From Methylococcaceae bacterium TMED69 (GTDB lineage: Bacteria > Pseudomonadota > Gammaproteobacteria > Ga0077536): a stretch of 64,000 nt of DNA. The notes beneath the pieces are model-generated. The model did no database searches, had not been told where the DNA came from, and was given only the letters and a program-made list of their open reading frames with translations. Shown here piece by piece: positions 35,790 to 49,792 of this stretch; within the stretch, counting starts at the first letter, position 1; each line of letters opens with the position of its first letter. The stretch covers positions 59,899 to 123,898 of the forward strand of contig NHDW01000001.1 of assembly GCA_002170535.1 (NCBI GenBank). The letters are read 5' to 3'. The translations under genes were made by a program, and so were the position numbers.

Positions 35790-37010
35790 TTGGAGGGATT
35801 GCGAATGTCGTTTGAAGAGAAAGTTGTTCCCTTAGAGGGTATTACAATACTTGATATGAGCGCCGTATTATCGGGCCCTGCATCAACTATGCTGCTAGCG
35901 GACCAAGGAGCTCGCGTGATTAAGGTTGAGTCGCCTGAAGGTGATATTACTCGTAAAATGGGTGTTAGAAAAGGTAGCTTATCTACAGCGTTCATAAATA
36001 TAAACAGAGGAAAACAATCCTTATCAATTGATTTAAAAACTCTAGAAGGGCGTCAAATTATTGAAGGGTTGGTCGAAAATAGTGATGTTTTTGTACAGAA
36101 TTTCAGACCAGGAGTGATAGAACGTCTTGGTTTAGATGAAAAATCTATTCGTAAGCTAAATCACCAAGTCGTTTATGTATCGATTAGCGGTTTTGGTAAC
36201 ACTGGCCCGCTCATAAACAGCAGAGTATACGATCCCGTTATACAGGCGATTTCTGGGTTAGCCGACATTCAGGCTGGTGGTTCGTCGAGGCCGAAAATGG
36301 TCAGGACTGTTATTCCTGATAAAGTGACTGCTTTGAAAGCGGCTCAGGCTATTACCGCGGGCTTACTTTATCGTTCAAGAGTTACAAAAGGCTGTCATAT
36401 TAAATTGTCCATGCTTGATGCTATGGTTGCTTTTTTGTGGCCGGAGGGAATGATGAACTATACTTTAATAGAGGATAGAGCTTCTGGAAGTCCTGAAGGC
36501 CAAATCGCTCAAGATTTAGTGTTTAGAACATTAGATGGTTTTATTACAGTCGGCGCGATGTCAGATCAAGAATGGGCTAGTTTGTGCGAGGTTTTACAAA
36601 AACCTGAGTGGGTATCGGATAGGAGGTTTAAGACTACTGCAGCACGACTGAAAAACGCAAAAACCAGATTGCAGATGACGTCAGAAATTCTAAAAATGAA
36701 AGAGAGTTCTTATTGGATTTCTCGCTTCAGCGAGAAAGAAGTACCTTGTGCGCCAATTTTATCAAGACGTGAGATGTTAAACTATGAACAAGTTCTTCAA
36801 AGTAAAATTTACACGGAATTAGACCATCCTAATTTTGGGCGAATAAGACAGACGAGAGCCGCAGCCGTTTTTGATGACGGCTCACCAATGAGACAATGTT
36901 ACGCTCCGACGCTTGGCCAACATAATGAAAAAATAATTGAGGAACTTGGGTACGAAAAAAACTATATCGATAGTTTGTATGACAAAAATATTTTGTTTAG
37001 ATCGGTCTAA
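35790..37010 (+). CDS. family III CoA-transferase (CaiB/BaiF/Frc family)
   Basis: N-terminal LEGITILDMSAVLSGPASTMLLADQGARVIKVE with the catalytic Asp region, and a characteristic interlocked-dimer sequence pattern. The true start is probably the Met at 35805. Confidence 0.85.
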   Translation: MEGLRMSFEEKVVPLEGITILDMSAVLSGPASTMLLADQGARVIKVESPEGDITRKMGVRKGSLSTAFININRGKQSLSIDLKTLEGRQIIEGLVENSDVFVQNFRPGVIERLGLDEKSIRKLNHQVVYVSISGFGNTGPLINSRVYDPVIQAISGLADIQAGGSSRPKMVRTVIPDKVTALKAAQAITAGLLYRSRVTKGCHIKLSMLDAMVAFLWPEGMMNYTLIEDRASGSPEGQIAQDLVFRTLDGFITVGAMSDQEWASLCEVLQKPEWVSDRRFKTTAARLKNAKTRLQMTSEILKMKESSYWISRFSEKEVPCAPILSRREMLNYEQVLQSKIYTELDHPNFGRIRQTRAAAVFDDGSPMRQCYAPTLGQHNEKIIEELGYEKNYIDSLYDKNILFRSV

Positions 37011-37100
37011 TTCATTACACTTAAGCGACGTTTAAACTATTATTTAATTTTTAAATGGTAGTTTTTAGCTTTTAGGCCAATTAAAGGTAAAAGGAGAATT

Positions 37101-37529
37101 ATGACTAAAACCTTGAATGCGGAATGTTTTTGCGGCGAAGTAAGGTTGAAGATTAATGGGGTACCAGAAGCGATGGGATATTGTCATTGCGATTCTTGCA
37201 GACATTGGTCTGCGGGTCCTGTCAATGCTTTTAGCCTATGGGCACCAGCAAATATCGAAATTATACAAGGTCAACACAATCTACAAACTTACACTAAGAC
37301 TGAAAATAGCTTAAGAAAGTGGTGCGGTACATGCGGCGGACATGTTATGACAGAGCATCCAAAGATGAACTTAACCGACGTTTATTCGGCTGTTATCCAT
37401 CGATTAGAATTTAACCCTAGCGTCCATGTGTTTTATTCGGAAAAGCGAATTAGCATGCCTGATGGGCTTCCTAAGTTCAGTGATATGCCAAAAGAAATGG
37501 GTGGATCTGGTAAGCTTTTACCTGAATAG
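37101..37529 (+). CDS. GFA-family protein (glutathione-dependent formaldehyde-activating enzyme / CENP-V fold, Zn-binding)
   Basis: Cys pattern C-x-C...C-H-C-x2-C...C-x2-C (CFCGEV...GYCHCDSCRHWS...CGTCGGHV). Confidence 0.8.
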   Translation: MTKTLNAECFCGEVRLKINGVPEAMGYCHCDSCRHWSAGPVNAFSLWAPANIEIIQGQHNLQTYTKTENSLRKWCGTCGGHVMTEHPKMNLTDVYSAVIHRLEFNPSVHVFYSEKRISMPDGLPKFSDMPKEMGGSGKLLPE

Positions 37530-37581
37530 TAATGTTATTAAGATAATATCTTCCATATCAATTAACTGAGGAGATGTAGTT

Positions 37582-38655
37582 ATGGCAATCGGAATTTTAA
37601 AGGAAACTAAAGTCAAAGAATACCGTGTGGCTCTAGATGATTCTCAGGTAGCTCGATTAGTTTCTGCTGGTGTACAAGTGTTTGTAGAGAGTGATGCAGG
37701 TTTGGGTGTTGGAATTACCGATGACAATTATATTGACGCGGGTGCAACGGTAATCGGAGATCCTGAGGAACTTATCAGTGTCTCTAAGGTTGTCATTAAG
37801 GTAAAAGAACCGAATATAAAAGAATGTAAACTTTTACAACCCCACCAGATATTATTTTGTTATTTACATTTGGCGGCATTCCCGGAACAGACTCGCTTGC
37901 TTTGTGAATCCGGGGTTACTGCTGTTGGTTTTGAGACTGTGAGCACTTCTGATGGGCAGTTGCCACTCTTAAAGCCTATGAGTCAAATTGCGGGTAGGTT
38001 GGCTGTACAGAATGCAGTCCATTTTCTTCAAAAGCATGAAGGTGGAAGGGGTGTACTGATGTCTGGAGTTGGTGGAGTCGAGAGAGGAAGAATTTTAATC
38101 ATTGGTGGAGGGACAGCGGGAGAAAATGCCGCTTCTATCGGTGTGGGACTGGGAGCTGAAGTAACAATTTTTGATAGGTCGCTGGAAAGGTTAGATTATT
38201 TGGCTGATAAATTTGGTTCTAATTTAAATTATGTCTACCCCACAACTAAAGCCTATGATGAGCACCTTTCTAATGCTGACATAGTTATTGGCTCTGTGTT
38301 GATTCCAGGAGCAAGTGCCCCAAAATTAGTCTCAAGAAATATGGTAGGCAATATGAAAGTAGGCGCTGTTGTTGCGGATATCGCGATAGACCAGGGTGGT
38401 TGTATAGAAACTTCTCGACCTACTTCCCATGATGAACCGACCTATATTGTTGATAACGTAATCCACTATTGTGTGGCTAATATTCCTAGTGCGGTACCTC
38501 TTACCTCAACTAAAGCATTAAGTAACTCGATCTCACCTTACGTTCAGATTTTGGCTGAAATAGCTAACCCAATTGACTTAGTTACAAAAAACCATCCATT
38601 GAAAAGCGGTGTTAATATTTATAATGGTGAGGTCCGTCTAGATAATCTACAGTAA
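37582..38655 (+). CDS. ald: alanine dehydrogenase
   Basis: Near-colinear with Bacillus Ald. Matching segments: ILKE.K..E.RVAL, KVKEP, LFCYLHLAA, GVTA.GFETV, LPLL.PMS.IAGR, IIGGG..G.NAA..GVGLGA.VTI.D, VLIPGA.APKLV and IAIDQGG.IET.RPT.HDEPTY. Confidence 0.85.
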   Translation: MAIGILKETKVKEYRVALDDSQVARLVSAGVQVFVESDAGLGVGITDDNYIDAGATVIGDPEELISVSKVVIKVKEPNIKECKLLQPHQILFCYLHLAAFPEQTRLLCESGVTAVGFETVSTSDGQLPLLKPMSQIAGRLAVQNAVHFLQKHEGGRGVLMSGVGGVERGRILIIGGGTAGENAASIGVGLGAEVTIFDRSLERLDYLADKFGSNLNYVYPTTKAYDEHLSNADIVIGSVLIPGASAPKLVSRNMVGNMKVGAVVADIAIDQGGCIETSRPTSHDEPTYIVDNVIHYCVANIPSAVPLTSTKALSNSISPYVQILAEIANPIDLVTKNHPLKSGVNIYNGEVRLDNLQ

Positions 38656-38707
38656 GTTTGCTGTTACAGTTTATCAAAAACTTAGCAAAACTTGTTTTGG
38701 ACAATAT

Positions 38708-39946
38708 ATGAAAAAAAAAGAAGAAGAAATTTTAATAATTGGTGGTTCGATGGCTGGCTTATTAGCTGGGATGAGTCTGAAAAATAGAGGTTATGAGGTA
38801 AAAATTTTTGAGCGTAGCACATCTTCACTGGAAAATAGAGGCGCAGGAATAGCCACACATGACGAGCTTTACGAAGCTTTAGAGTTCGCAGGCTTGTCTT
38901 CAAAAGCGAGTATGGGAGTGGTTTCAGACGAAAGGTTGTTTTTCTCGAAGAATGGAGATGTGACCCACAGAGTGGCAATGCCTCAGACGATGACGTCGTG
39001 GGGTCTAATCTATCGGTTTTTAAAGTTAAAATTAAGTCCCGGAGAATATTATCCAGATCACTGTCTTAACAATATTTTATATTCTCCTGACGGTAAAATT
39101 ATTGCAAAATTTACCAATGGTAAAACTGTCCAAGGTGACTTCTTGGTAGGAGCTGATGGTAGTTTATCTAGGGTCAGGCAAATCCTGCTTCCACATATTA
39201 AACCAGAGCATTCAGGTTATATAGCATGGCGAGGTTTGGTAAACGAATCAGATATTCCGTCCTCTGCGCTTCATAAGTTGGCTAATAAGTTTAGTTTTGC
39301 TTTGACTGAGGGCGGGCATTGGCTGGGATATTTGGTTGCGGGTCCGAACGATGATTTAGCGGAAGGAAAAAGATGGTATAACTGGGTTTGGTACCAATGG
39401 GAGGACACTCATTCGTTAGAAAAGATTCTCACCGATAAATCAGGTAAATATTATCCTTCTGGAATACCTCCAAATTTAATAACCGAGAAAAGTAAAAATT
39501 ATATGCGAAAGAAAGCTGCTCAATTACCAAGTATTATTCGAGAGCTTGTTACAAAGACAAAAGTTCCTTTTTTACAGGGTATTCAAGACTTATGCGTGAA
39601 TAGATTGTCCTTTGACAAGGTCGTTTTGATAGGGGATGCCGCTTGTACTGCGAGGCCTCATGTTGGTCTAGGAGTCTCGAAGGCTGCTTCGGACGCCATG
39701 ACATTGACAAAAGCGTTGTTATCCCCTGACCGAGAAGAGGCTTTGGAGCGTTGGCAGCAATCTAGGTTGGAGTTCGCAAAAGCTGTATTTCAGTGGTCGC
39801 GAGATTTGGGAAGTTACATAGGAAGTCAGAAAAAAGATAAACCCACCGGTTTTAAAGCTGATTATTACGATGATCCGAATACACTCATAATTCAAAATGC
39901 CTCAAACCAGCCCAGTCATTATATTAAATACTATCTGGCACGATAA
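38708..39946 (+). CDS. FAD-dependent aromatic-ring-type monooxygenase (PHBH-fold flavoprotein hydroxylase)
   Basis: ILIIGGSMAGLLAG...EVKIFER dinucleotide motif, DFLVGADGSLSRVR (the GADG motif), and a C-terminal GDAA-like motif (IGDAACTARPHVG). Confidence 0.7.
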   Translation: MKKKEEEILIIGGSMAGLLAGMSLKNRGYEVKIFERSTSSLENRGAGIATHDELYEALEFAGLSSKASMGVVSDERLFFSKNGDVTHRVAMPQTMTSWGLIYRFLKLKLSPGEYYPDHCLNNILYSPDGKIIAKFTNGKTVQGDFLVGADGSLSRVRQILLPHIKPEHSGYIAWRGLVNESDIPSSALHKLANKFSFALTEGGHWLGYLVAGPNDDLAEGKRWYNWVWYQWEDTHSLEKILTDKSGKYYPSGIPPNLITEKSKNYMRKKAAQLPSIIRELVTKTKVPFLQGIQDLCVNRLSFDKVVLIGDAACTARPHVGLGVSKAASDAMTLTKALLSPDREEALERWQQSRLEFAKAVFQWSRDLGSYIGSQKKDKPTGFKADYYDDPNTLIIQNASNQPSHYIKYYLAR

Positions 39947-40020
39947 GGGGTTGGCTGAAGGGCAGCTTTGATTTAAGCTTAATGAAAATTAAAAAAATTA
40001 GGAATTAGGAAGGGAAAAAT

Positions 40021-41631
40021 ATGAAGGAAGAAGAATTGAAATTAGACGCTTTAGTTATTGGGGCTGGAGTAGCAGGTTTGTATCAATTATATCTATTAAG
40101 AAAACAAGGCTTGAACGTCAAAGTCATTGATGCGGGCTCAGGGGTAGGCGGCACTTGGTATTGGAATCGTTATCCTGGAGCAAGATTCGATTCTGCCTGT
40201 TACATTTATCAATATTTATTTGACGAAGAGTTGTATAAAGGTTGGAGTTGGTCTGAAAAATTTCCTGGACAACCAGAAATTGAGAGATGGATGAACTATG
40301 TTGCTGATAAATTAGAATTAAAAAAGGATATTCAATTTAGTACCGTTGTGAAATCAGCTACATGGGATCAACAGCGTTCGTCTTGGCAGGTATCAACGGA
40401 TTCTGGTCAAAAAATAGAATGTCAGTATCTCATTTCTTGCACTGGAATGTTATCGGCTCCGTTAGAGAATGTATTCCCCGGCCAGGATAAATTCGACGGA
40501 GATATTTTTCATACCGCACGTTGGCCAAAAGAATCAATTGATTTTTCTAATCGTAGGGTTGGTATAGTAGGGAATGGAGCTACGGGAATTCAGGTTATTC
40601 AAACAATTGCTCCTGACTGTAAAGAGTTGAAAGTTTTCGTTCGCACACCGCAGTACGTCAATGCAATGAATAATCCTAAATATTCAGACAAAGACGTTGA
40701 AGAATACAAAGATAAATTTCATTGGTTTCAAGAGAACTTACCAAAAACTTTTTCGGGATTCGAATTTGAATGGCAAGATGGCTCTTGGGCTGATAGCACA
40801 CCTGAAAAAAGAAGAGAGGTACTCGAAAGAATTTGGGAAAATGGTTCATTAGAACTATGGCTTTCCTCTTATAAAGAGATGTTTTTCGAGCAGGAAGTGA
40901 ATGATGAAATATCAAATTTCGTGCGAGAAAAGATGGAACAAAGACTCAAAGATCCACAACTATGTGAAATCCTTATTCCGAAAGATTACGGTTTCGGTAC
41001 CCATAGGGTTCCACTCGAGAATGGTTATCTGGAGAAGTTTCATCTCCCTCACGTAAACCTAATTAGTGTTAAAGATAATCCAATCGCAGAGATAACATCG
41101 AGCGGAATTCGCCTAAGTAATGGGCAATCTTTTGAACTCGACACAATTATACTAGCTACTGGTTTTGATGCTGGTTCTGGAGCGCTGACAAGGATTGATA
41201 TAAAAGGCAAGAGCGATCAGTTGCTTAAAGACGAGTGGAATCGGGAAATTAAAACAATGATGGGTCTTCAAATAAGCGGTTATCCAAACTTGTTCACAAC
41301 TGGTGCTCCGCTCGCGCCCTCGGCAGCGCTCTGTAATATGACGACTTGTTTACAACAACAAGCAGAATGGATAAGCGATTGCATAAGCTACGTTAATGGG
41401 CAGGGGAAAAAAGTTATTGAAGCCAGCGAGTCAGCTCAAGAGGCTTGGGTGTCCCATCATGACGAAGTCGCTGAACAGACACTGGTAACGAAAACAAGCT
41501 CTTGGTATATGGGTTCTAATGTAGACGGAAAACCGAGAAGGTTACTATCTTATATTGGCGGGGTGGGCAATTATCGAGAGAAATGTCTTGACGTTGCGAA
41601 AGCCGAATATACAGGTTTTAATATTACCTAA
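40021..41631 (+). CDS. type I Baeyer-Villiger monooxygenase (FAD/NADPH-dependent)
   Basis: Two Rossmann motifs (GAGVAGL and GNGATGIQ) plus the BVMO fingerprint F-x-G-x3-H-x3-W-P, here FDGDIFHTARWP. 536 aa. Confidence 0.85.
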   Translation: MKEEELKLDALVIGAGVAGLYQLYLLRKQGLNVKVIDAGSGVGGTWYWNRYPGARFDSACYIYQYLFDEELYKGWSWSEKFPGQPEIERWMNYVADKLELKKDIQFSTVVKSATWDQQRSSWQVSTDSGQKIECQYLISCTGMLSAPLENVFPGQDKFDGDIFHTARWPKESIDFSNRRVGIVGNGATGIQVIQTIAPDCKELKVFVRTPQYVNAMNNPKYSDKDVEEYKDKFHWFQENLPKTFSGFEFEWQDGSWADSTPEKRREVLERIWENGSLELWLSSYKEMFFEQEVNDEISNFVREKMEQRLKDPQLCEILIPKDYGFGTHRVPLENGYLEKFHLPHVNLISVKDNPIAEITSSGIRLSNGQSFELDTIILATGFDAGSGALTRIDIKGKSDQLLKDEWNREIKTMMGLQISGYPNLFTTGAPLAPSAALCNMTTCLQQQAEWISDCISYVNGQGKKVIEASESAQEAWVSHHDEVAEQTLVTKTSSWYMGSNVDGKPRRLLSYIGGVGNYREKCLDVAKAEYTGFNIT

Positions 41632-41688: not shown

Positions 41689-43737
41689 ATGACATGCATA
41701 TTAGGGATAGACGTTGGAGGTACATTTACCGACTTCGTCTATCATGATCCCTCTGAAGACAAGTTGATAGTTTGGAAAACCCTTTCAACACCATCAGATC
41801 CGGGAAAAGGAATTCTGGACGGCCTACAAAATCAACAGGTTGGCGGAGTAGATTACCTTCGTTTTGGAACAACTATTGCCACAAACGCGATACTTGAACG
41901 AAACGGTGCTACTGTGGCTTTTGTAACGACTTTGGGCTTTAAGGACGTTCCATTTATTCAAAGGGGAAAACGACAGAGTCATTACGATATAAATTGGATT
42001 AAGTCCAAGCCCTTAGTAAAAAGAAGACATTGTTTTGAAATCGACGAACGTATTACGCCTCGTGAAGGGGTCTACAAAGCGCTTGATGAAAATCAAGTCA
42101 GAAAAGTTGCTAGAGCGATAGGTAATGATCAAGAAATAGAAGCAATAGCAATTTGTTTACTTTGTTCTTATGTCATACCTGATCATGAGATTCGGGTAAA
42201 AGAAATTTTTAGAGAAGAAATTCCTGATAAGCCCATTTCTATATCTTATGACTTACTTCCGAAGTGGAAAGAACATGAACGATCTTCAACAACAATAGCT
42301 GATGCTTATTTGAAACCTCTGGTTTCAGAAAATTTGAAGAGGCTTGGTCACAAATTGTCCGAAGCAAAAGATATAAAAAGAGTGTCTGTAATTAAGTCAA
42401 ATGGAGGAGAGGTATCTCTAGAAGCAGCTAAAAATTGTCCAATTCATCTAAGTTTGTCTGGCCCTACCGGGGGAGTCATTGGTGCTCGACAACTTTCAAA
42501 CCTCATTAACATTGATCATATGGTTACGCTTGATATGGGCGGAACATCAACAGATGTTTCGACTGTAGTAGGCAGGACAGAAAGTTTTACAACGAGTTAT
42601 GAAATAGAGTTTGGCATACCAATTCAAATCCCAATGATTGATATAAGAACTATGGGTGCAGGTGGAGGCTCAATAGCGTGGATAGATAAGGGTGGAATGT
42701 TGCAAGTCGGTCCACAAAGTGCCGGCGCGGCTCCCGGCCCAGCCTGTTACGATAGAGGAGGAGAGTTGCCCACAGTGACAGATGCAAATGTGGTTTTAGG
42801 TAGAATTAACCCTCAATTCTTTTTGGGTGGAAATATGAAGTTAAGCGTGGAGAAAGCAAAGCAAGCAGTAAAATCAATAGCTGAACAGTTGGGAGAAACT
42901 TTAGAAAATACTGCGAATGGTATCGTGAAGATAGCTAATAATAATATGGTTGGTGCAACTCGGTTGGTATTGACTGAAAAAGGACTAGACCCAAGAGATT
43001 TTACTATGCTTGCATTTGGTGGAGCCGGCCCCGTGCATATTTCTGACTTGATGCAACTTGCAGGGACACCGAGTGGTATTGTGCCTAATCATCCCGGTCA
43101 ATTCTCCGCTTTTGGATTCACGATGACAGATGCAAGAGTTGATTTAGAACGGACTGCGCCAATGACGTCCAGGTTTTTTAATTTTGACTATGCTAATAGA
43201 GTCTTAAGTGATTTGGTCGCAGAATGCAGCGAGGCATTGGTAGAGCAGGGATACACAGAGAAGATAGAAGTATTGAAAACCCTAGAAATGCGTTATTTTG
43301 GTCAAAATCACGAATTAGAGATTTCATTCTACGATAATGAATTCTCAGAAAATGCAATATCTTCTGTTTGGGATTCTTTTCATGAAGCGCATAAGAAGCG
43401 TTATAATTTCGACATCCCTAACGAGACGATAGAACTAATAAGTATAAAAGTTACCGCTTTAGCTCTCACTCCAAAGCCCCAAATACCAATCATAGCGTAC
43501 TCTGATAAACTTCCATCTCCTTACGAAAAACGTCAAGTTTTTTTCGATAGTGGGATAGCAAGTGCCTCGGTTTACAGAAGAGAAGAGCTTCCAGTCGGTA
43601 AAATTTTTACAGGACCAGCGCTTATAGAAGAAGATGCATCTGTTACAGTTGTTAGTCCTGACATGCCAGTCCTTATTGACAAATACGGAAATATTGTCTT
43701 AGGTAAGTTAGCCGCGGAGTATAAAAACAAATTATGA
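41689..43737 (+). CDS. hyuA: hydantoinase/oxoprolinase family protein, A-type subunit (HyuA-like, ATP-binding)
   Basis: N-terminal GIDVGGTFTDFV, a central DMGGTSTD motif, and the family's ASKHA-fold pattern. 682 aa. Confidence 0.85.
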   Translation: MTCILGIDVGGTFTDFVYHDPSEDKLIVWKTLSTPSDPGKGILDGLQNQQVGGVDYLRFGTTIATNAILERNGATVAFVTTLGFKDVPFIQRGKRQSHYDINWIKSKPLVKRRHCFEIDERITPREGVYKALDENQVRKVARAIGNDQEIEAIAICLLCSYVIPDHEIRVKEIFREEIPDKPISISYDLLPKWKEHERSSTTIADAYLKPLVSENLKRLGHKLSEAKDIKRVSVIKSNGGEVSLEAAKNCPIHLSLSGPTGGVIGARQLSNLINIDHMVTLDMGGTSTDVSTVVGRTESFTTSYEIEFGIPIQIPMIDIRTMGAGGGSIAWIDKGGMLQVGPQSAGAAPGPACYDRGGELPTVTDANVVLGRINPQFFLGGNMKLSVEKAKQAVKSIAEQLGETLENTANGIVKIANNNMVGATRLVLTEKGLDPRDFTMLAFGGAGPVHISDLMQLAGTPSGIVPNHPGQFSAFGFTMTDARVDLERTAPMTSRFFNFDYANRVLSDLVAECSEALVEQGYTEKIEVLKTLEMRYFGQNHELEISFYDNEFSENAISSVWDSFHEAHKKRYNFDIPNETIELISIKVTALALTPKPQIPIIAYSDKLPSPYEKRQVFFDSGIASASVYRREELPVGKIFTGPALIEEDASVTVVSPDMPVLIDKYGNIVLGKLAAEYKNKL

Positions 43738-43946
43738 GATTTTCAGAAAACAAATATTACATAGAGAAATATATAAAATGCGATAACTGTGGAATGCTTA
43801 TCTATGGCGATGGTCTGAAATCTAAAGAATTTTCTAAATTGTTGTTTTGTAGCGATTGGTGTATAGATTGGTATAAATCTAAGTCAAAAGGTAATGAAGA
43901 TCCGCGTATACCGTTGCCTAAAAGTGGAATTCACGAAATCAACTAG
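43734..43946 (+). CDS. 70-aa zinc-ribbon protein, translationally coupled between hyuA and hyuB. Possible small third subunit.
   Basis: Its start ATG overlaps the hyuA stop (ATGA). It has C-x2-C ... C-x3-C (CDNCG ... CSDWC). The hyuB ribosome-binding site AGGAGG follows 8 nt after its stop. Confidence 0.5.
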   Translation: MRFSENKYYIEKYIKCDNCGMLIYGDGLKSKEFSKLLFCSDWCIDWYKSKSKGNEDPRIPLPKSGIHEIN

Positions 43947-43957
43947 GAGGCTAGCAA

Positions 43958-45655
43958 ATGGACATGATAAATATGAATATTATCGAGTCAGCTATGATAG
44001 CGATCGCTAAAGAAATGGGAATTAATGTACAAAAAACAGCGTACTCCACAATCTTTAGTGAAGCTGAAGATTTCACATGCGCATTGGCAAATCGTGCGGG
44101 TGAATTAATTGCCGTGGCCGACTTTTGTCCCTCTCAAATTGGAGGCGTTCCGCTGTTGGTTCGATCCATGTTGAAGGAAATTCCCCTCTCAGAAATTGAT
44201 GAAGGCGATGTGATTGTGCACAATGATCCATACAGAGGTGGGTTGCACACACCAGAACATACAGTATTCAAACCGATCTTTATCGACGGTGAAATCGCGG
44301 CATTTTCTGTATGTGTTGGTCACTTTGTAGAGGTTGGGGGGATGGCTCCAGGGGGGTTTCCGGGTGAAGCCACTGAAATTTTTCATGAAGGTTTGAGGGT
44401 CCCACCTGTGAAAATTATAAAAAAAGGAGTAGATGTTCCAGAGGTCTGGAAAATGATGTTGGCTAATGTTAGAACCCCTAGAGGAAACTATGGTGATATG
44501 AGGGCTCTGATTAGCGGAGTGGATCTAGGGGAAAAAAGACTTCAAGAATTAGTTAAAAAATACGGTAAAGATAAATTTAATACAATAGTTAAAGATCTTC
44601 TAGATTATTCTGAAAGGCGGATGAGAGCGGAAATCTCAGAATTTCCCGACGGTGTTTATCGATTTATTGATAGAGTCGAAGACGACGGTATAGAAGACAA
44701 AGAATATGAAGTGCACGTTGCCGTGCATGTCCAAGGAGATGAGGTGGTTATCGATTACACTGGCTCGTCAAGACAGGCAAAGGGTCCAATTAATGCCACT
44801 TTAGGAGTTGCTTGGTCAGCTGCGTTTAATGCCATGTTACATTTAACAGATCAAAGCATCCCAAAAAATTCTGGTTGTTTCAGACCAATTAGAGTGATCG
44901 CACCAGCTGGAACCGTAATGAATGTTAATTATCCGGGTTCTGAGGTTGGAGGAAACACAGAAACTCATCCTTTGATAGTAGCGGCTATATTTGGCGCGAT
45001 GGTGGAGTGCGTGCCCGATAGGGTTATGGCTTCTGAAGGAACCACTCATGGATGTTTTGTTTTCGGTGGTCATGATGACTACACTGATGAGCCTTTTGGG
45101 GGATTTGATTTCAGCTATGTAGGTTATGGAGGCCGTGCATTTGCTGACGGCAATGATGCAACAGATTCGATTAATGGAAACTGCGCAAACACTCCAATGG
45201 AAGTATTTGAAACAAGGTTTCCTTGGATAGTCGAGGAATATGCGCTAAGGCCAAACTCAGGAGGGGCTGGAAAATTTAGAGGTGGTTTAAGCAATGTGAA
45301 ACAAATGTTATGTACAGGAGGGATGTTAGTCAGCCAGATGACCAATAAGCATAAATTAGGCGCATGGGGCCTAGTTGGCGGAGAGGAAGGTAAAACCGGC
45401 GCAACGTTATTTAAAAAATCAGGTAGCGATAGCTGGGAGACGGCGGTAGAGGCTTATGGTAAAGTCAGCCCAAGTAAGTATTCGAATATTCCAATGCAAC
45501 CAGGAGACCGAGTTCGAGTTTCAGCACCTGGTGGAGGCGGATACGGTCAAGCGTCTGAAAGAGAAAAAAGTGATGTTCTTATGGACGTAAAGGAAGGTTA
45601 TATAAGTAAAGCTGATGCAATAAAATCATACCCAGTCAACGGCAGTGATTTGTAG
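43958..45655 (+). CDS. hyuB: hydantoinase B/oxoprolinase family protein (HyuB-like catalytic subunit)
   Basis: 565 aa with the characteristic HyuB N-terminal region (IAKEMGINVQKTAYSTIFSEAEDF). AGGAGG ribosome-binding site. Confidence 0.85.
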   Translation: MDMINMNIIESAMIAIAKEMGINVQKTAYSTIFSEAEDFTCALANRAGELIAVADFCPSQIGGVPLLVRSMLKEIPLSEIDEGDVIVHNDPYRGGLHTPEHTVFKPIFIDGEIAAFSVCVGHFVEVGGMAPGGFPGEATEIFHEGLRVPPVKIIKKGVDVPEVWKMMLANVRTPRGNYGDMRALISGVDLGEKRLQELVKKYGKDKFNTIVKDLLDYSERRMRAEISEFPDGVYRFIDRVEDDGIEDKEYEVHVAVHVQGDEVVIDYTGSSRQAKGPINATLGVAWSAAFNAMLHLTDQSIPKNSGCFRPIRVIAPAGTVMNVNYPGSEVGGNTETHPLIVAAIFGAMVECVPDRVMASEGTTHGCFVFGGHDDYTDEPFGGFDFSYVGYGGRAFADGNDATDSINGNCANTPMEVFETRFPWIVEEYALRPNSGGAGKFRGGLSNVKQMLCTGGMLVSQMTNKHKLGAWGLVGGEEGKTGATLFKKSGSDSWETAVEAYGKVSPSKYSNIPMQPGDRVRVSAPGGGGYGQASEREKSDVLMDVKEGYISKADAIKSYPVNGSDL

Positions 45656-45664
45656 GTAAAACTT

Positions 45665-46078
45665 ATGAGCAAGCTAACGAAAAGTCTTCATTGGTCAACT
45701 GTGATAGGTGAGAAAATATTGCTCGCTATTATAGGTTTCTTAACTATAGTTGCAGCTGGTCTTGATATTCTCGAAATGTACGACGCTAGAAAAATAGAAC
45801 TGGCCGACCTATTTTTATTATTCATTTATGCCGAAATAATAGGGATGGTTGGTGCATTCTATGCCAGTAGTCGTATTCCAGTTACATTACCAATAATAAT
45901 TGCCATGACCGCGTTATGTAGATTAATTGTGCTCCATAGTAAAGAAATGGACCCGATGATGTTGTTTGCTGAAGCAGGTGCAATTGCTATACTGGCCGCC
46001 GCCGCTTATGTGATGAGCCTTAAAGATAAAATTAGTTTAGAGAAAAGTGAACTAAGAGAACGGGTTTCGAAACAATAA
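45665..46078 (+). CDS. PsiE-like small inner-membrane protein (phosphate-starvation-inducible protein E family)
   Basis: 137 aa with 4 TM helices. Its spacing and residues resemble E. coli PsiE (YAEIIGMV compared with YFEFIALIV, and TALCRLIVLHSK compared with TAIVRLIIVDHK). Confidence 0.5.
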   Translation: MSKLTKSLHWSTVIGEKILLAIIGFLTIVAAGLDILEMYDARKIELADLFLLFIYAEIIGMVGAFYASSRIPVTLPIIIAMTALCRLIVLHSKEMDPMMLFAEAGAIAILAAAAYVMSLKDKISLEKSELRERVSKQ

Positions 46079-46159: not shown

Positions 46160-49100
46160 GTGATTACTAAAAAATCCTCAAATAATAAATGGCAATTTTG
46201 GATTGATAGGGGAGGTACATTCACAGACGTTATAGGCGTTTCCCCCGATGACGTTATCCACGTAAAAAAAATCCTCACTGCTCATAAAAATGAATCCTTC
46301 AAGATAATCCTTGAGCATATTTATTCAATTATCCGGTCGACTGATGCTGATGGGCATGTTGATGAAAGTATAGGTGAGATTAAACTTGGTACAACCCTGG
46401 GAACTAATGCTTTATTAGAAAAAAAAGGCGCTAAAACTGTTTTGGTGGTCACAAAAGGTTATAAAGATCTGCTGTCGATAGGACATCAGAACAGAGAATT
46501 GCTGTTCTCATTTAACATAAGGAAAGAAAGTACGTTTTGGGAAAGTGCCGTAGAGGTTGGAGGTAGGATAAGTGCTAGTGGCAAAATTCTTGATAGACTA
46601 GATGAAAATGATGTAGTAAACGTGCTTAAGACCCGCAAAATAAATTCTTTCGACGCTGTCGCGGTCGCTTTGATTAATAGCCATATAAATCCAGCGCATG
46701 AAAATCTTGTTGCTAAGAAATTACAAGATTTGGGTATAGATAATCTCGCTATCTCACATCAAAGCAGCTCAATGTTAGGGTATGTTGATCGTGCAAACAC
46801 CGCTGTCGTTGACGCTTATTTAAAACCACTACTAGAAAAATATGTAGCGGGCATAAAAAAAGAGATAGGTAAAGTAAATTTTCTAATCATGCAATCTCAT
46901 GGTGGACTGGCCGAAGCGGAGAATTTTCAGGGCAGGAATTCCATTTTATCAGGACCTGCCGGCGGAGTGATAGGAGCAGTTAAAACCGCAAGAAATAGAG
47001 GTTTTGATAAAATTATCTGTTTTGATATGGGGGGCACCTCGACCGATGTGGCTCATTATCATGATAACTACGAGTACAGAAGTCAAAGTAAAATTGAAAG
47101 CATCACAATTAACAGTAATTCAATGGACATCCATACGGTGGCCGCAGGAGGAGGTTCTATCGTTGATTTTGACGGCATTAGGTACAAAGTGGGCCCGGAA
47201 TCAGGGGGCTCATATCCTGGTCCTGCCTGTTACGGGAATGGCGGCCCGGTTACAGTCACAGACTGTAACGTTCTGATTGGTATAATCAGACCAGAATATT
47301 TTCCAACTCTGTTCGGTAAAAATAAAAATTCGCCCATAGACAGAGATTTAGTTGTTTCAATATTTGAAAAAATAAAGGATGATTCAAAAAATAAGCTAAA
47401 GGAAGATATGACTATTTACCAAATCGCAGAGGGTTTTTTAGAATTAGCTGTAAAAAAAATGGCCAATGCAATAAAAAAAATATCAATTGATAAAGGTCAT
47501 GATATAAAAAACTATGTTTTAAATTGCTATGGAGGTGCAGCTGCGCAACACTGCTGTGCAGTTGCAGATTCTCTAAGCATTAAAGAAATTTTCATTTCAA
47601 ATAATGCCAGCGTCTTATCTGCTCTTGGGATCGGTCTCTCAGATAGACAAATAATTATTGAAAAATCAATAAACAAAATTCTTTGCGACTCAATTGTTAA
47701 AGAATTGCCAATTTTTGCTGAACGAATAATTAAAGATTCGAAATTAAATTTTAAAAGACAAGAATTAGTAACAAGTGAAATTTTTCTTAAATTAAAGTTT
47801 GAGGACACCTCGGATACTTTTTTAATTCCTTTGAGCGATAGTAACAGTATGAGAGATCAATTTATGCAGTCTTTTAAAAAAAGCTATGGTTTTCTAGAGC
47901 AAAATAAAAACCTTTTTGTTGAGTCAATTTTGGTTAAGACAATAGAAGCATCAAAAATTAATCTTAATGCCTTAAGTTCCAATTCTTCAGAACATGTAAA
48001 TACAAATAAAACTGCACTAGAAAAAAAGGTTTTTGAGGATGGTCAATGGAAAGATATACCTTTCTATCAGCTCGAGGAGCTCTCAAGCCAAAAATCAATA
48101 ATTGGTCCCGCAGTCATAATATCACCAAACAATACGGTATTAATAAAGACAGGTTGGACGTGTGATTGCTACGATAATCATGATTTATTATTGAGAAAAT
48201 TAAATCCTTCAGAGAAAAACAATCTTTTAATTAAATCACAGAATACAAAAATTGCCATGGAGGTAGCAATCTTTGGAAATCAAATAGTCTCTGTTGCGGA
48301 ACAGATGGGAAGTGCTCTTAAAAAGACTGCTACTTCTATCAACATAAAAGAGCGTTTGGACTATTCTTGTGCGATCTTCGATAGTGAAGGGTCATTATTG
48401 GCAAGTGCGCCACATATTCCTGTACATCTGGGCTCTATGAGCGATTGCGTAAAAACGTTAATTGAGAAGATGTCGGGCTCTTTAAAATCAGGTCAAACAT
48501 ATGTTACAAATGATCCGTTTAGAGGGGGAACACACTTACCAGATATTACATGTATTAGTCCAGTTTTTGCTTCTGAAAACCATAGAGCCCCCGTTTTTTT
48601 TGTGGCTTCTCGTGGTCATCACGCTGATATTGGAGGGATAACTCCAGGCTCTATGCCAGCTGAAAGCTTAAATATTCAACAAGAGGGAATACTCTTTAAG
48701 CTGATGATGGCAGTAAAAGATAATGTTTTTAGAGAAAAAGAAATTACCCGTATTCTTTTAGATAGTAATTATCCGGCTAGGAATATTGCCCATAATATTG
48801 CTGACCTAAAGGCGCAAATTGCGGCAAACCAGACAGGGATAAATGAGCTTCAAACTAAATTAATCGAGTTTGGTGAGGCTTCAGTTACTGACCTGTCGAA
48901 ACGTCTTTTAAATCAAGGCGAGCAGTTTGTGAGAAAGATTATACCTGACTTAAATTCAGGTACCTTTGAAGCTTGCCTTGATGAGGGGCAGAAGATTTCT
49001 GTCGATGTGCGCGTGAATAAAAATCAAAAAGAAATAACATTTGATTTCGAAAATACAAATGGGCAGCTTAAAACTAATTTTAACGCGCCTAAATCGATTA

Positions 49101-49792
49101 CTAAGGCGTGTATTATTTACGTTTTACGTTCGCTTATTTGTGATAAAGAAATACCATTAAATGATGGGTGTTTGATTCCAGTCAAATTAAAGATACCTAA
49201 AAAAAGTCTATTAGATCCAAGCTATCCCGCTGCAGTTGTCGCTGGTAATGTTGAAATTAGCCAAAAAATTGTCGATGTTATTTTAGCCGCTCTTGGAATC
49301 CAAGCATTTTCCCAGGGAACGATGAATAATTTATCTTTTGGAAACTCCCGTTTTCAATATTACGAAACAATTTCCGGCGGTTCGGGAGCGGGAAAAAATT
49401 ACGATGGCTCTAGCGCAAGACAAACACATATGACTAATTCACGAATTACAGATCCTGAGGTGATGGAACATCATTTCCCCGTTTTACTGGAGGAATTTTC
49501 AATAAGACAAAATAGCGGAGGAAAAGGTCAATATAATGGAGGAGACGGGGTGTGTAGAAAAATTAAATTTTTTGAGTCAGTTTCTTTATCGATATTATCG
49601 AGTAGTAGGGTATTTCGACCTACCGGATTAGATGGCGGATTGCAAGGATTAGCGGGTAGGAACTTTCATATTGATGAGGCTGGGTGTCATCATGAGTTGC
49701 CAGGATGTGCTCAAATAGAAATTAAGCCCGGTGAATCTATTTTAATTCACACGCCAGGTGGTGGAGGTTTTGGTGAGCCGTCTTTTGATTGA
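46160..49792 (+). CDS. fused hydantoinase/oxoprolinase A+B protein (5-oxoprolinase (ATP-hydrolysing)-like, eukaryote-type single-chain architecture)
   Basis: 1210 aa. The N-terminus (WQFWIDRGGTFTDV) parallels animal OPLAH (FHFAIDRGGTFTDV). It has the DMGGTSTDV motif, and its C-terminal half is HyuB-like. GTG start. Confidence 0.8.
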   Translation: MITKKSSNNKWQFWIDRGGTFTDVIGVSPDDVIHVKKILTAHKNESFKIILEHIYSIIRSTDADGHVDESIGEIKLGTTLGTNALLEKKGAKTVLVVTKGYKDLLSIGHQNRELLFSFNIRKESTFWESAVEVGGRISASGKILDRLDENDVVNVLKTRKINSFDAVAVALINSHINPAHENLVAKKLQDLGIDNLAISHQSSSMLGYVDRANTAVVDAYLKPLLEKYVAGIKKEIGKVNFLIMQSHGGLAEAENFQGRNSILSGPAGGVIGAVKTARNRGFDKIICFDMGGTSTDVAHYHDNYEYRSQSKIESITINSNSMDIHTVAAGGGSIVDFDGIRYKVGPESGGSYPGPACYGNGGPVTVTDCNVLIGIIRPEYFPTLFGKNKNSPIDRDLVVSIFEKIKDDSKNKLKEDMTIYQIAEGFLELAVKKMANAIKKISIDKGHDIKNYVLNCYGGAAAQHCCAVADSLSIKEIFISNNASVLSALGIGLSDRQIIIEKSINKILCDSIVKELPIFAERIIKDSKLNFKRQELVTSEIFLKLKFEDTSDTFLIPLSDSNSMRDQFMQSFKKSYGFLEQNKNLFVESILVKTIEASKINLNALSSNSSEHVNTNKTALEKKVFEDGQWKDIPFYQLEELSSQKSIIGPAVIISPNNTVLIKTGWTCDCYDNHDLLLRKLNPSEKNNLLIKSQNTKIAMEVAIFGNQIVSVAEQMGSALKKTATSINIKERLDYSCAIFDSEGSLLASAPHIPVHLGSMSDCVKTLIEKMSGSLKSGQTYVTNDPFRGGTHLPDITCISPVFASENHRAPVFFVASRGHHADIGGITPGSMPAESLNIQQEGILFKLMMAVKDNVFREKEITRILLDSNYPARNIAHNIADLKAQIAANQTGINELQTKLIEFGEASVTDLSKRLLNQGEQFVRKIIPDLNSGTFEACLDEGQKISVDVRVNKNQKEITFDFENTNGQLKTNFNAPKSITKACIIYVLRSLICDKEIPLNDGCLIPVKLKIPKKSLLDPSYPAAVVAGNVEISQKIVDVILAALGIQAFSQGTMNNLSFGNSRFQYYETISGGSGAGKNYDGSSARQTHMTNSRITDPEVMEHHFPVLLEEFSIRQNSGGKGQYNGGDGVCRKIKFFESVSLSILSSSRVFRPTGLDGGLQGLAGRNFHIDEAGCHHELPGCAQIEIKPGESILIHTPGGGGFGEPSFD

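Follow-up and report, generated by a model that had tools for sequence, protein, structure and literature searches.

A small TRASH/FCS-like Cys4 protein, probably a third subunit, is encoded with one clade of HyuAB enzymes

The characterized two-subunit enzymes of the HyuA/HyuB hydantoinase/oxoprolinase superfamily are either (alpha-beta)2 assemblies or single-chain A-B fusions and have no third component. CapAB is an active (alpha-beta)2 enzyme (PMC8453981), and the hydantoinases, according to the authors who described Apc-gamma, have no orthologue of gamma (PMC5214803). In the carboxylases, however, a further small zinc protein accompanies the large subunits. Apc-gamma, a 15-kDa protein with Cys22, Cys25, Cys75, and Cys78, "partly envelops" the HyuB-like Apc-beta (PMC5214803), and AC-gamma (AcxC, ∼20 kDa) is a Yippee-like protein with a Cys4-Zn site. 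Most contacts of gamma are with the HyuB-like subunit, and the gamma zinc is regarded as structural and as remote from the active site (PMC5214803, PMC5543143). In one system the genes run apcA(alpha')-apcB(gamma)-apcC(alpha)-apcD(beta), and in the other acxC comes after acxAB (PMC5214803); a sequence-only reading of the locus described here had placed the gamma gene 3' of both large-subunit genes, which is correct for acxABC, but in apcABCD the second gene encodes gamma.

The hyuAB locus that we compare with these systems lies in a 64,000-nucleotide stretch of DNA, the whole of which is referred to as the window. The hyuA gene (41689..43737, + strand) encodes an ATP-binding A subunit of the hydantoinase/oxoprolinase/lactamase type with 682 residues (Pfam Hydant_A_N, 7e-50; Hydantoinase_A, 9e-89; Hydant_A_C, 3e-15), and hyuB (43958..45655, + strand) encodes a metal-containing B subunit of 565 residues that matches Pfam Hydantoinase_B over its full length (E = 7e-167) and is the candidate binding partner of the small protein discussed below. 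Relatives of HyuB in the PDB are N-methylhydantoinase, CapB, Apc, and AC, and the CapB metal ligands D41, H99, D102, and H124 align with the conserved D38, H-N-D, and H of the window HyuB. The Hydantoinase_A and Hydantoinase_B matches and the Asp-His-Asp-His site in the B subunit place the pair in the HyuA/HyuB superfamily, and fold, domain order, and metal ligands are shared with CapAB (6YRA) and N-methylhydantoinase (9H03/7HK5). In NCBIfam both proteins come nearest to caprolactamase, the best model for HyuA being caprolactamase alpha, and we considered whether the window pair is caprolactamase CapAB itself; this was rejected, as HyuA scores 502 bits and HyuB 315 bits against a cutoff of 1000 bits for the equivalogs NF050156 and NF050157. 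Judged by these scores, the window HyuAB belongs to the CapAB superfamily but is a different enzyme. Among the neighboring genes are those for a DAO-type oxidoreductase, an SDR, an ABC importer, aminotransferases, and succinate-semialdehyde dehydrogenase, which as pointers to the substrate are suggestive only.

Between the two genes lies a 70-codon ORF (43734..43946, + strand) that starts with ATG and encodes MRFSENKYYIEKYIKCDNCGMLIYGDGLKSKEFSKLLFCSDWCIDWYKSKSKGNEDPRIPLPKSGIHEIN, a Cys4 protein of 70 residues. The sequence-only reading had described its start as overlapping the hyuA stop codon and its end as lying 11 nt 5' of the hyuB ATG, which carries an AGGAGG, and the letters bear out both points. 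The ATG at 43734-43736 overlaps the hyuA TGA at 43735-43737 in an ATGA (43734..43737, + strand), consistent with translational coupling; the stop codon is a TAG at 43944-43946, and 11 nt separate it from the hyuB ATG at 43958. The AGGAGG Shine-Dalgarno sequence of hyuB (43945..43950, + strand) shares bases with this stop codon and is spaced 7 nt from the hyuB ATG. The small protein is a "hypothetical protein" in RefSeq. A word-indexed search returned 11 close homologues, of which one, from the marine MAG Methylococcaceae bacterium TMED69, is identical and is annotated "hypothetical protein."

Among 1.84 billion cluster representatives, a profile search recovered 92 clusters of relatives at E ≤1e-3, 50 of them at ≤1e-10. 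In a diverse alignment of 32 members, which are 33-86% identical to the window protein, Y9, Y13, C16, C19, G20, C39, and C43 are invariant, and K15, L22, Y24, S40, W42, and W46 are nearly so. When the window ORF is compared with the orthologue at locus L006, third codon positions account for 25 of the 29 nucleotide differences (dN 0.042, dS 1.16), giving a dN/dS of ∼0.04, and the small ORF is thus under strong purifying selection; both of its alternative frames are full of stops. A spurious ORF is ruled out by the 92 clusters of relatives, the invariant cysteines of the 32 members, and the dN/dS pattern, and the 70-codon ORF is a genuine conserved gene.

The four cysteines, present in 32 of 32 members, are spaced C16-x2-C19-x19-C39-x3-C43. 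We modeled the protein with AF2 from an alignment of close homologues, which gave a β-hairpin bearing the first Cys pair and a helix (residues 41-51) running from the second pair (pLDDT 77). The predicted first zinc knuckle, C16-D-N-C19 (TGC GAT AAC TGT; 43779..43790, + strand), is invariant in alignments A1 and A2 and sits in the turn between predicted strands 13-15 and 22-24, and the putative second zinc-binding half-site, C39-S-D-W-C43 (43848..43862, + strand), forms an "FCSxWC" motif that opens the predicted helix. The motif had been read from the sequence as a zinc ribbon; the C-x2-C...C-x3-C pattern is indeed present, but "ribbon" is imprecise for a predicted knuckle plus helix. A treble-clef/TRASH-like fold is preferred because the second ligand pair, C-x3-C, opens a helix, and the same feature of the AF2 model speaks against a classical two-hairpin zinc ribbon.

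The TRASH cysteine signature is said to have been defined by Ettema et al. in 2003 as C-x2-C-x19-22-C-x3-C, with which the window protein agrees, and its combination of C-x2-C-x19-C-x3-C with an "FCS..C" second half-site is what we take to be the TRASH/FCS signature. The TRASH, FCS (MYM-type), and eL24-type treble clefs (Pfam zf-FCS, Arc_trans_TRASH, TRASH_HVO_1752_C, TRASH_ZMYM4) have the same Cys spacing and the "FCS..C" at the helix N terminus; unlike the TRASH/FCS fingers, the small-protein family has a strongly conserved N-terminal "MRFSxNGYYIE.Y.KC" segment and a "WC..W" signature of its own. The best structural matches of the AF2 model are eL24, MYND, and the TRASH domain of ZMYM5 (2das), and 2das is also the top match in a PDB sequence search (E = 0.23). 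Searched against Pfam-A, the window protein itself matched no model (best E = 0.27), and none in NCBIfam. Weak Pfam matches are found in three to nine of the 32 members, depending on the model: to TRASH_HVO_1752_C in six (best E = 2e-6), zf-FCS in eight (best E = 5.5e-5), TRASH_ZMYM4 in four, Arc_trans_TRASH in three, and also to DUF7576; in a Pfam scan of the multi-repeat matches in the tail of the profile search, zf-FCS rose above threshold only in P0103. We therefore assign the small protein, with moderate confidence, to the TRASH/FCS-like treble clefs, and its four cysteines would be expected to bind zinc.

Outside this core the protein carries a Pro-rich C-terminal tail, P57-R-I-P-L-P-K-S-G-I-H-E-I-N (43902..43943, + strand), in which P57, P60, L61, P62, I66, and H67 are conserved in A1. 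Both the N-terminal MRFSxNGYYIE segment and the P-R-I-P-L-P of the tail are predicted with low confidence, in the small protein alone and likewise in the model of a natural fusion described below. Such low confidence is typical of segments that may fold only on a partner, which is a hint rather than evidence.

To place the gene in its genomic context, one genome from each of 185,579 species was scanned with a narrower alignment (A3); 197 encode a relative, and 80 loci were fetched. The window HyuA, small protein, and HyuB were mapped onto these and five metagenomic loci. In 79 of the 85, hyuA or hyuB is at most 6 kb away from the small gene and nearly always directly adjacent to it, and the hyuA and hyuB products at these 79 loci are 55-95% identical to those of the window. 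No hyuAB was seen in the fetched flank (up to 6 kb) of the other six loci, two of which are near a contig end. The sequence-only reading had proposed to look for a Cys4 ORF conserved between hyuA and hyuB homologues; its place in the order varies: besides the A-small-B order of the window, we observed small-A-B, A-B-small, one divergent arrangement, and a fused small-HyuB form. In related loci the distance from the hyuA stop to the small start is -4 to 44 nt and that from the small gene to hyuB 11-83 nt.

For the 63 loci with all three proteins, pairwise distances between the small proteins are correlated with the HyuB distances (r = 0.87, Mantel p = 0.001) and with the HyuA distances (r = 0.91), compared with r = 0.90 between HyuA and HyuB, and the small protein thus co-evolves with HyuA and HyuB as tightly as these do with each other. 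On a neighbor-joining tree of HyuB from the same loci, the A-B-small order appears in at least four places and small-A-B in at least two, with the fused forms making up one clade. The gene has therefore been moved repeatedly and never lost from the cluster, its linkage to hyuAB having been kept through at least six independent changes of gene order.

In ∼19 of the 85 loci the small module and HyuB are encoded, in that order, by one ORF of 636-659 residues; the isolates Acuticoccus kalidii and Arboricoccus pini are among the carriers. With the Arboricoccus fusion as query, we recovered full-length proteins (∼640 residues, query coverage 96-100%) in more than 110 separate clusters at 90% identity, from sources that include the Rhizobium/Agrobacterium group, Acuticoccus, Alsobacter, Dongiaceae, and Paraburkholderia tropica. 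PF02538 is the sole annotation on all of these fusions, and the N-terminal module is unannotated. In Agrobacterium vitis S4, the RefSeq protein (WP_012650545.1) starts MRFSENGYYIEKYLKCANCG...CSEWC, and the HyuB N terminus follows ∼30 residues later; the counterpart of the Pro-rich tail in the fusions is the start of the linker, with the related stretch "RLPIVQPKLPVE." The body of the AF2 model of a natural small-HyuB fusion superposes on the B-type chains of N-methylhydantoinase, CapB, Apc, and AC; the linker and residues 1-11 have low confidence, and ∼50 residues at the N terminus are without an equivalent in any solved homologue. The HyuB parts of the characterized two-subunit enzymes are only distant relatives of this clade, 9H03 and 6YRA_B being, in the fold comparison, 31% and 29% identical to a fused HyuB of the clade.

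Not every apparent fusion is to be taken at face value. All that distinguishes a "fused" gene of Rhizobium leguminosarum from the split form in a second strain is a 1-nt indel, located in a G run 10 nt ahead of the stop codon, and the fused gene might be either a sequencing error or a fresh fusion. A fusion of HyuA to the small protein was also considered and rejected, the long open frames 5' of the small start in L011 and L080 being out of frame with hyuA and an artifact of high GC content. Read-through is suggested by just one sequence, the fragment P0025.

We then sampled hyuAB loci through HyuB rather than through the small protein. A tblastn search of 72,556 plasmids with the window HyuB gave 750 records with a homologue, among which there is a marked gap in identity: 19 records are at 53-64%, one archaeal record is at 47.6%, and the rest are at ≤37%. 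The small protein, searched by tblastn against the same plasmids, was found in 19 records, exactly the 19 with HyuB at 53-64%. In the archaeal record, from Halalkalicoccus jeotgali, the family HMM detected a 49-residue version, MTYTDYAETGTKCALCGKKMF...VCSEWCVEEY, overlapping the hyuA start. The small protein was also looked for, and not found, at five control loci whose HyuB is at ≤37%, from Paracoccus, Variovorax, and three haloarchaea. Given the exact match of the two sets of 19 records and the empty controls, the small protein marks one HyuAB clade, all of whose sampled members carry it. In Methylobacterium aquaticum the small gene is 6 kb upstream in the same cluster, following and overlapping a GntR gene. 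Absence of the ORF from comparable hyuAB loci, which would have told against the sequence-only reading, was not what we saw; the plasmid loci of the same clade all carry it.

Of the earlier suggestion that the ORF encodes a third subunit, the part that holds is a Cys4 protein dedicated to hyuAB, as seen in linkage, fusion to HyuB, co-evolution, and clade restriction; binding to the A or B subunit is the part that we infer from these. The small protein is probably a stoichiometric third subunit of HyuAB. Physical contact with HyuB is suggested on genetic grounds by the fusions to the HyuB N terminus in more than 110 clusters, and the role would be structural rather than catalytic. In the mechanism that we propose, the small protein would sit on HyuB, possibly bridging to HyuA, with the zinc holding the small domain together for a structural role or one in assembly and stability, and it would attach to the large subunits through its conserved N-terminal segment and its Pro-rich tail. 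In the window, coupling to hyuA and the hyuB Shine-Dalgarno overlapping the small stop codon may keep synthesis in step with the partners; in a sister clade this module is now the N-terminal domain of HyuB. We consider it rather likely that this is a dedicated TRASH/FCS-like zinc-binding third subunit of one HyuAB clade, placed on HyuB with a structural or assembly role. The clade extends over marine and soil Proteobacteria, plasmids of Rhizobium and Agrobacterium, and at least one haloarchaeon. For the broader proposal that this whole clade of ATP-dependent HyuAB cyclic-amide hydrolases is a three-component enzyme, with an obligatory TRASH-type subunit or domain clamped on HyuB and acquired independently of, and convergently with, gamma, the case seems to us evenly balanced.

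The main rival to a structural subunit is a metallochaperone or metal-sensing module, in which the Cys4 site would transiently hold Zn, Mn, Fe, or Cu and either load the Asp-His-Asp-His site of HyuB or gate activity by metal supply. The fusions are compatible with either role. We nevertheless regard this alternative as unlikely, as a tetrahedral Cys4 site in a treble clef of 40 residues usually has a structural role and does not readily release its metal, and other HyuAB clades have the same metal site without the small protein. Conservation also reaches beyond the ligands, to Y9, Y13, K15, L22, Y24, W42, W46, and the N-terminal and Pro-rich segments, as for a protein-protein interface, and the small protein co-evolves with the two subunits just as tightly as HyuA does with HyuB. 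A small regulator, such as a zinc finger that binds nucleic acid and controls the operon, or a passenger that just shares the operon with the enzyme might be argued from the presence of TRASH domains in archaeal transcription regulators (compare the weak Arc_trans_TRASH matches), from the overlap with the GntR gene in M. aquaticum, and from the six loci without hyuAB in the fetched flank. However, the small protein has no DNA-binding domain, its recurrent in-frame fusion to an enzyme subunit is hard to square with a diffusible regulator, and its exact co-occurrence with one HyuB clade and high distance correlation with the enzyme subunits likewise make such a role very improbable.

There is also the suggestion, made from the sequence alone, of a "mini-gamma," a shortened homologue of AcxC or ApcB. 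In both cases small Cys4 proteins are encoded in clusters of one enzyme superfamily, gamma binds the HyuB-like subunit (PMC5214803, PMC5543143), and the gene positions before and after A-B mirror those of apcABCD and acxABC (PMC5214803). Sequence, Cys spacing, and fold all disagree with such homology (PMC5214803, PMC5543143): none of the 32 members matches the Acetone_carb_G Pfam model at E up to 10, the PDB sequence search, taken to E = 10, returned no gamma chain, and the small protein lacks the gamma hallmark of two C-x2-C pairs ∼50 residues apart in a β-rich, Yippee-like protein of 15-20 kDa. Likeness to the acetone/acetophenone carboxylase gamma is thus missing at each of these levels, and the idea, already largely refuted, is now scarcely credible.

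Should the dedicated third subunit proposed above prove necessary for assembly or activity, attempts to express hyuAB by itself in a foreign host would not succeed; and if the whole clade is a three-component enzyme, recombinant hyuAB without the small protein should yield an inactive or unstable product. HyuAB-type hydantoinases, oxoprolinases, and lactamases are biocatalysts in use or sought, for example for nylon-monomer lactams and hydantoins, and are routinely annotated and cloned as two genes; in this clade a conserved third gene or N-terminal domain has been overlooked. The cultured carriers R. leguminosarum (strain GLR17, whose three proteins include WP_113541613.1), A. vitis S4, Sulfitobacter dubius DSM 109990, and Arboricoccus pini make the proposal directly testable.

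What we describe is a known enzyme system, newly associated with a divergent member of an established zinc-finger superfamily, and the small protein is conserved in Bacteria as well as in at least one archaeon. To call the third subunit undescribed is fair, because hydantoinases have no gamma orthologue (PMC5214803) and CapAB is an (alpha-beta)2 enzyme (PMC8453981); a TRASH-type, zinc-finger, or other small HyuAB partner is not described in the full-text literature searched, nor, in the libraries and papers searched, is a role for TRASH domains as partner or domain of an ATP-dependent amidohydrolase. The protein would be the second, independent case of a small Cys4 zinc protein with a HyuB-like subunit, the first being carboxylase gamma, whose role is described as unclear, and, if this is true, the superfamily has arrived more than once at a small Cys4 "clamp" for its HyuB-like subunit. 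The likeness to AcxC and ApcB lies in a small Cys4 zinc-binding accessory encoded with HyuA- and HyuB-like genes, before or after those of the large subunits. Gamma, in contrast, is β-rich, Yippee-like, and two to three times larger than the small protein, with its ∼45-residue treble-clef core and short conserved tails, and the partner enzymes differ, being carboxylases for gamma and hydrolase-like HyuAB (55-95% identical to that of the window) for the small protein, which by this comparison would be a functional analogue, and not a homologue, of carboxylase gamma.

At a set of loci from Alphaproteobacteria MAGs (L008-L012, L015, L019, L020, L024-L028, L030, L031 and L037) the small gene is flanked by two hyuAB pairs. 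The pairs differ markedly in their relationship to the one in the window, the upstream pair being only about 36% identical to it and the downstream pair 62-77%. Because the order small gene, hyuA, hyuB is also found with no upstream hyuAB pair, for example at loci L013, L014 and L018, we suggest that the small gene in the two-pair loci belongs to the downstream pair.

Two further cases may bear on how the small module becomes joined to its large partners. On two Rhizobium leguminosarum plasmids (L091:3380-3540 versus L092:3381-3541) the split form, with separate genes, and the fused form, in which the module is the N-terminal domain of HyuB, are a single-base indel apart. The indel falls within a run of Gs located 10 nt upstream of the small gene's stop codon, and the shifted frame of the fused form continues straight to the hyuB ATG. 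Either the difference reflects a sequencing error, or the two plasmids capture how a small-HyuB fusion can come about. A junction on the other side is seen in P0025, a 113-aa metagenomic fragment in which a single frame, uninterrupted by a stop codon, leads from a HyuA C terminus into the small protein. This could mean that HyuA and the small protein are fused here, or it could be an artefact of read-through; no continuous HyuA-small frame of this kind was found among the 85 related loci.

The small gene also occurs with neither hyuA nor hyuB inside the available flanks, at six loci (L051, L057, L062 and L067, all from Gammaproteobacteria MAGs, together with L016 and L083), whose small proteins are about 50-65% identical to that of the window. 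At L051, L057 and L067 it is adjoined by a cysteine-synthase-like ORF. The converse arrangement, hyuAB of a different clade (HyuB 35-37% identity) without the small protein, is found on plasmids of Halogeometricum and Haloferax mediterranei. There, genes for a CopG-family protein and an Nramp divalent-metal transporter lie directly upstream of hyuA and abut it (L093:220-3447 and L095:268-3495), a hint of a link between these enzymes and the supply of metal.

In the window itself, hyuB is followed directly on its 3' side by a gene for a PsiE-family membrane protein (45665..46078) and then by a second, oxoprolinase-like HyuA-HyuB, a single-chain fusion of 1210 aa (46160..49792) that lacks a dedicated small partner; the same tandem arrangement recurs in the related loci L006 and L007. 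Upstream of hyuA and co-oriented with it, five genes occupy 35790..41631. The first three, labelled by reading their translations, are a CoA-transferase-like gene, a gene for a small Cys-rich protein and an alanine-dehydrogenase-like gene. The last two, scanned against Pfam, encode an FAD monooxygenase at 38708..39946 and, at 40021..41631, a monooxygenase of the Baeyer-Villiger/FMO type. This stretch may be a single operon for the breakdown of a cyclic ketone or amide.

These upstream neighbors are unlike those at most related loci. Across the GTDB loci a DAO-type FAD oxidoreductase is the most frequent neighbor (19 loci), followed by an SDR (17 loci) and a PotABCD-like ABC importer (13 loci). 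Aminotransferase genes precede or follow the hyuAB-small clusters of a Sulfitobacter dubius plasmid (L086:1952-8879), A. vitis S4 pAtS4c (L087:1665-7102) and M. aquaticum (L098:6444-11108), and in Sulfitobacter a succinate-semialdehyde dehydrogenase gene flanks the cluster as well. Such aminotransferase and dehydrogenase neighbors would be consistent with a lactam being hydrolyzed to an omega-amino acid, in a route of the 2-pyrrolidone to GABA type.
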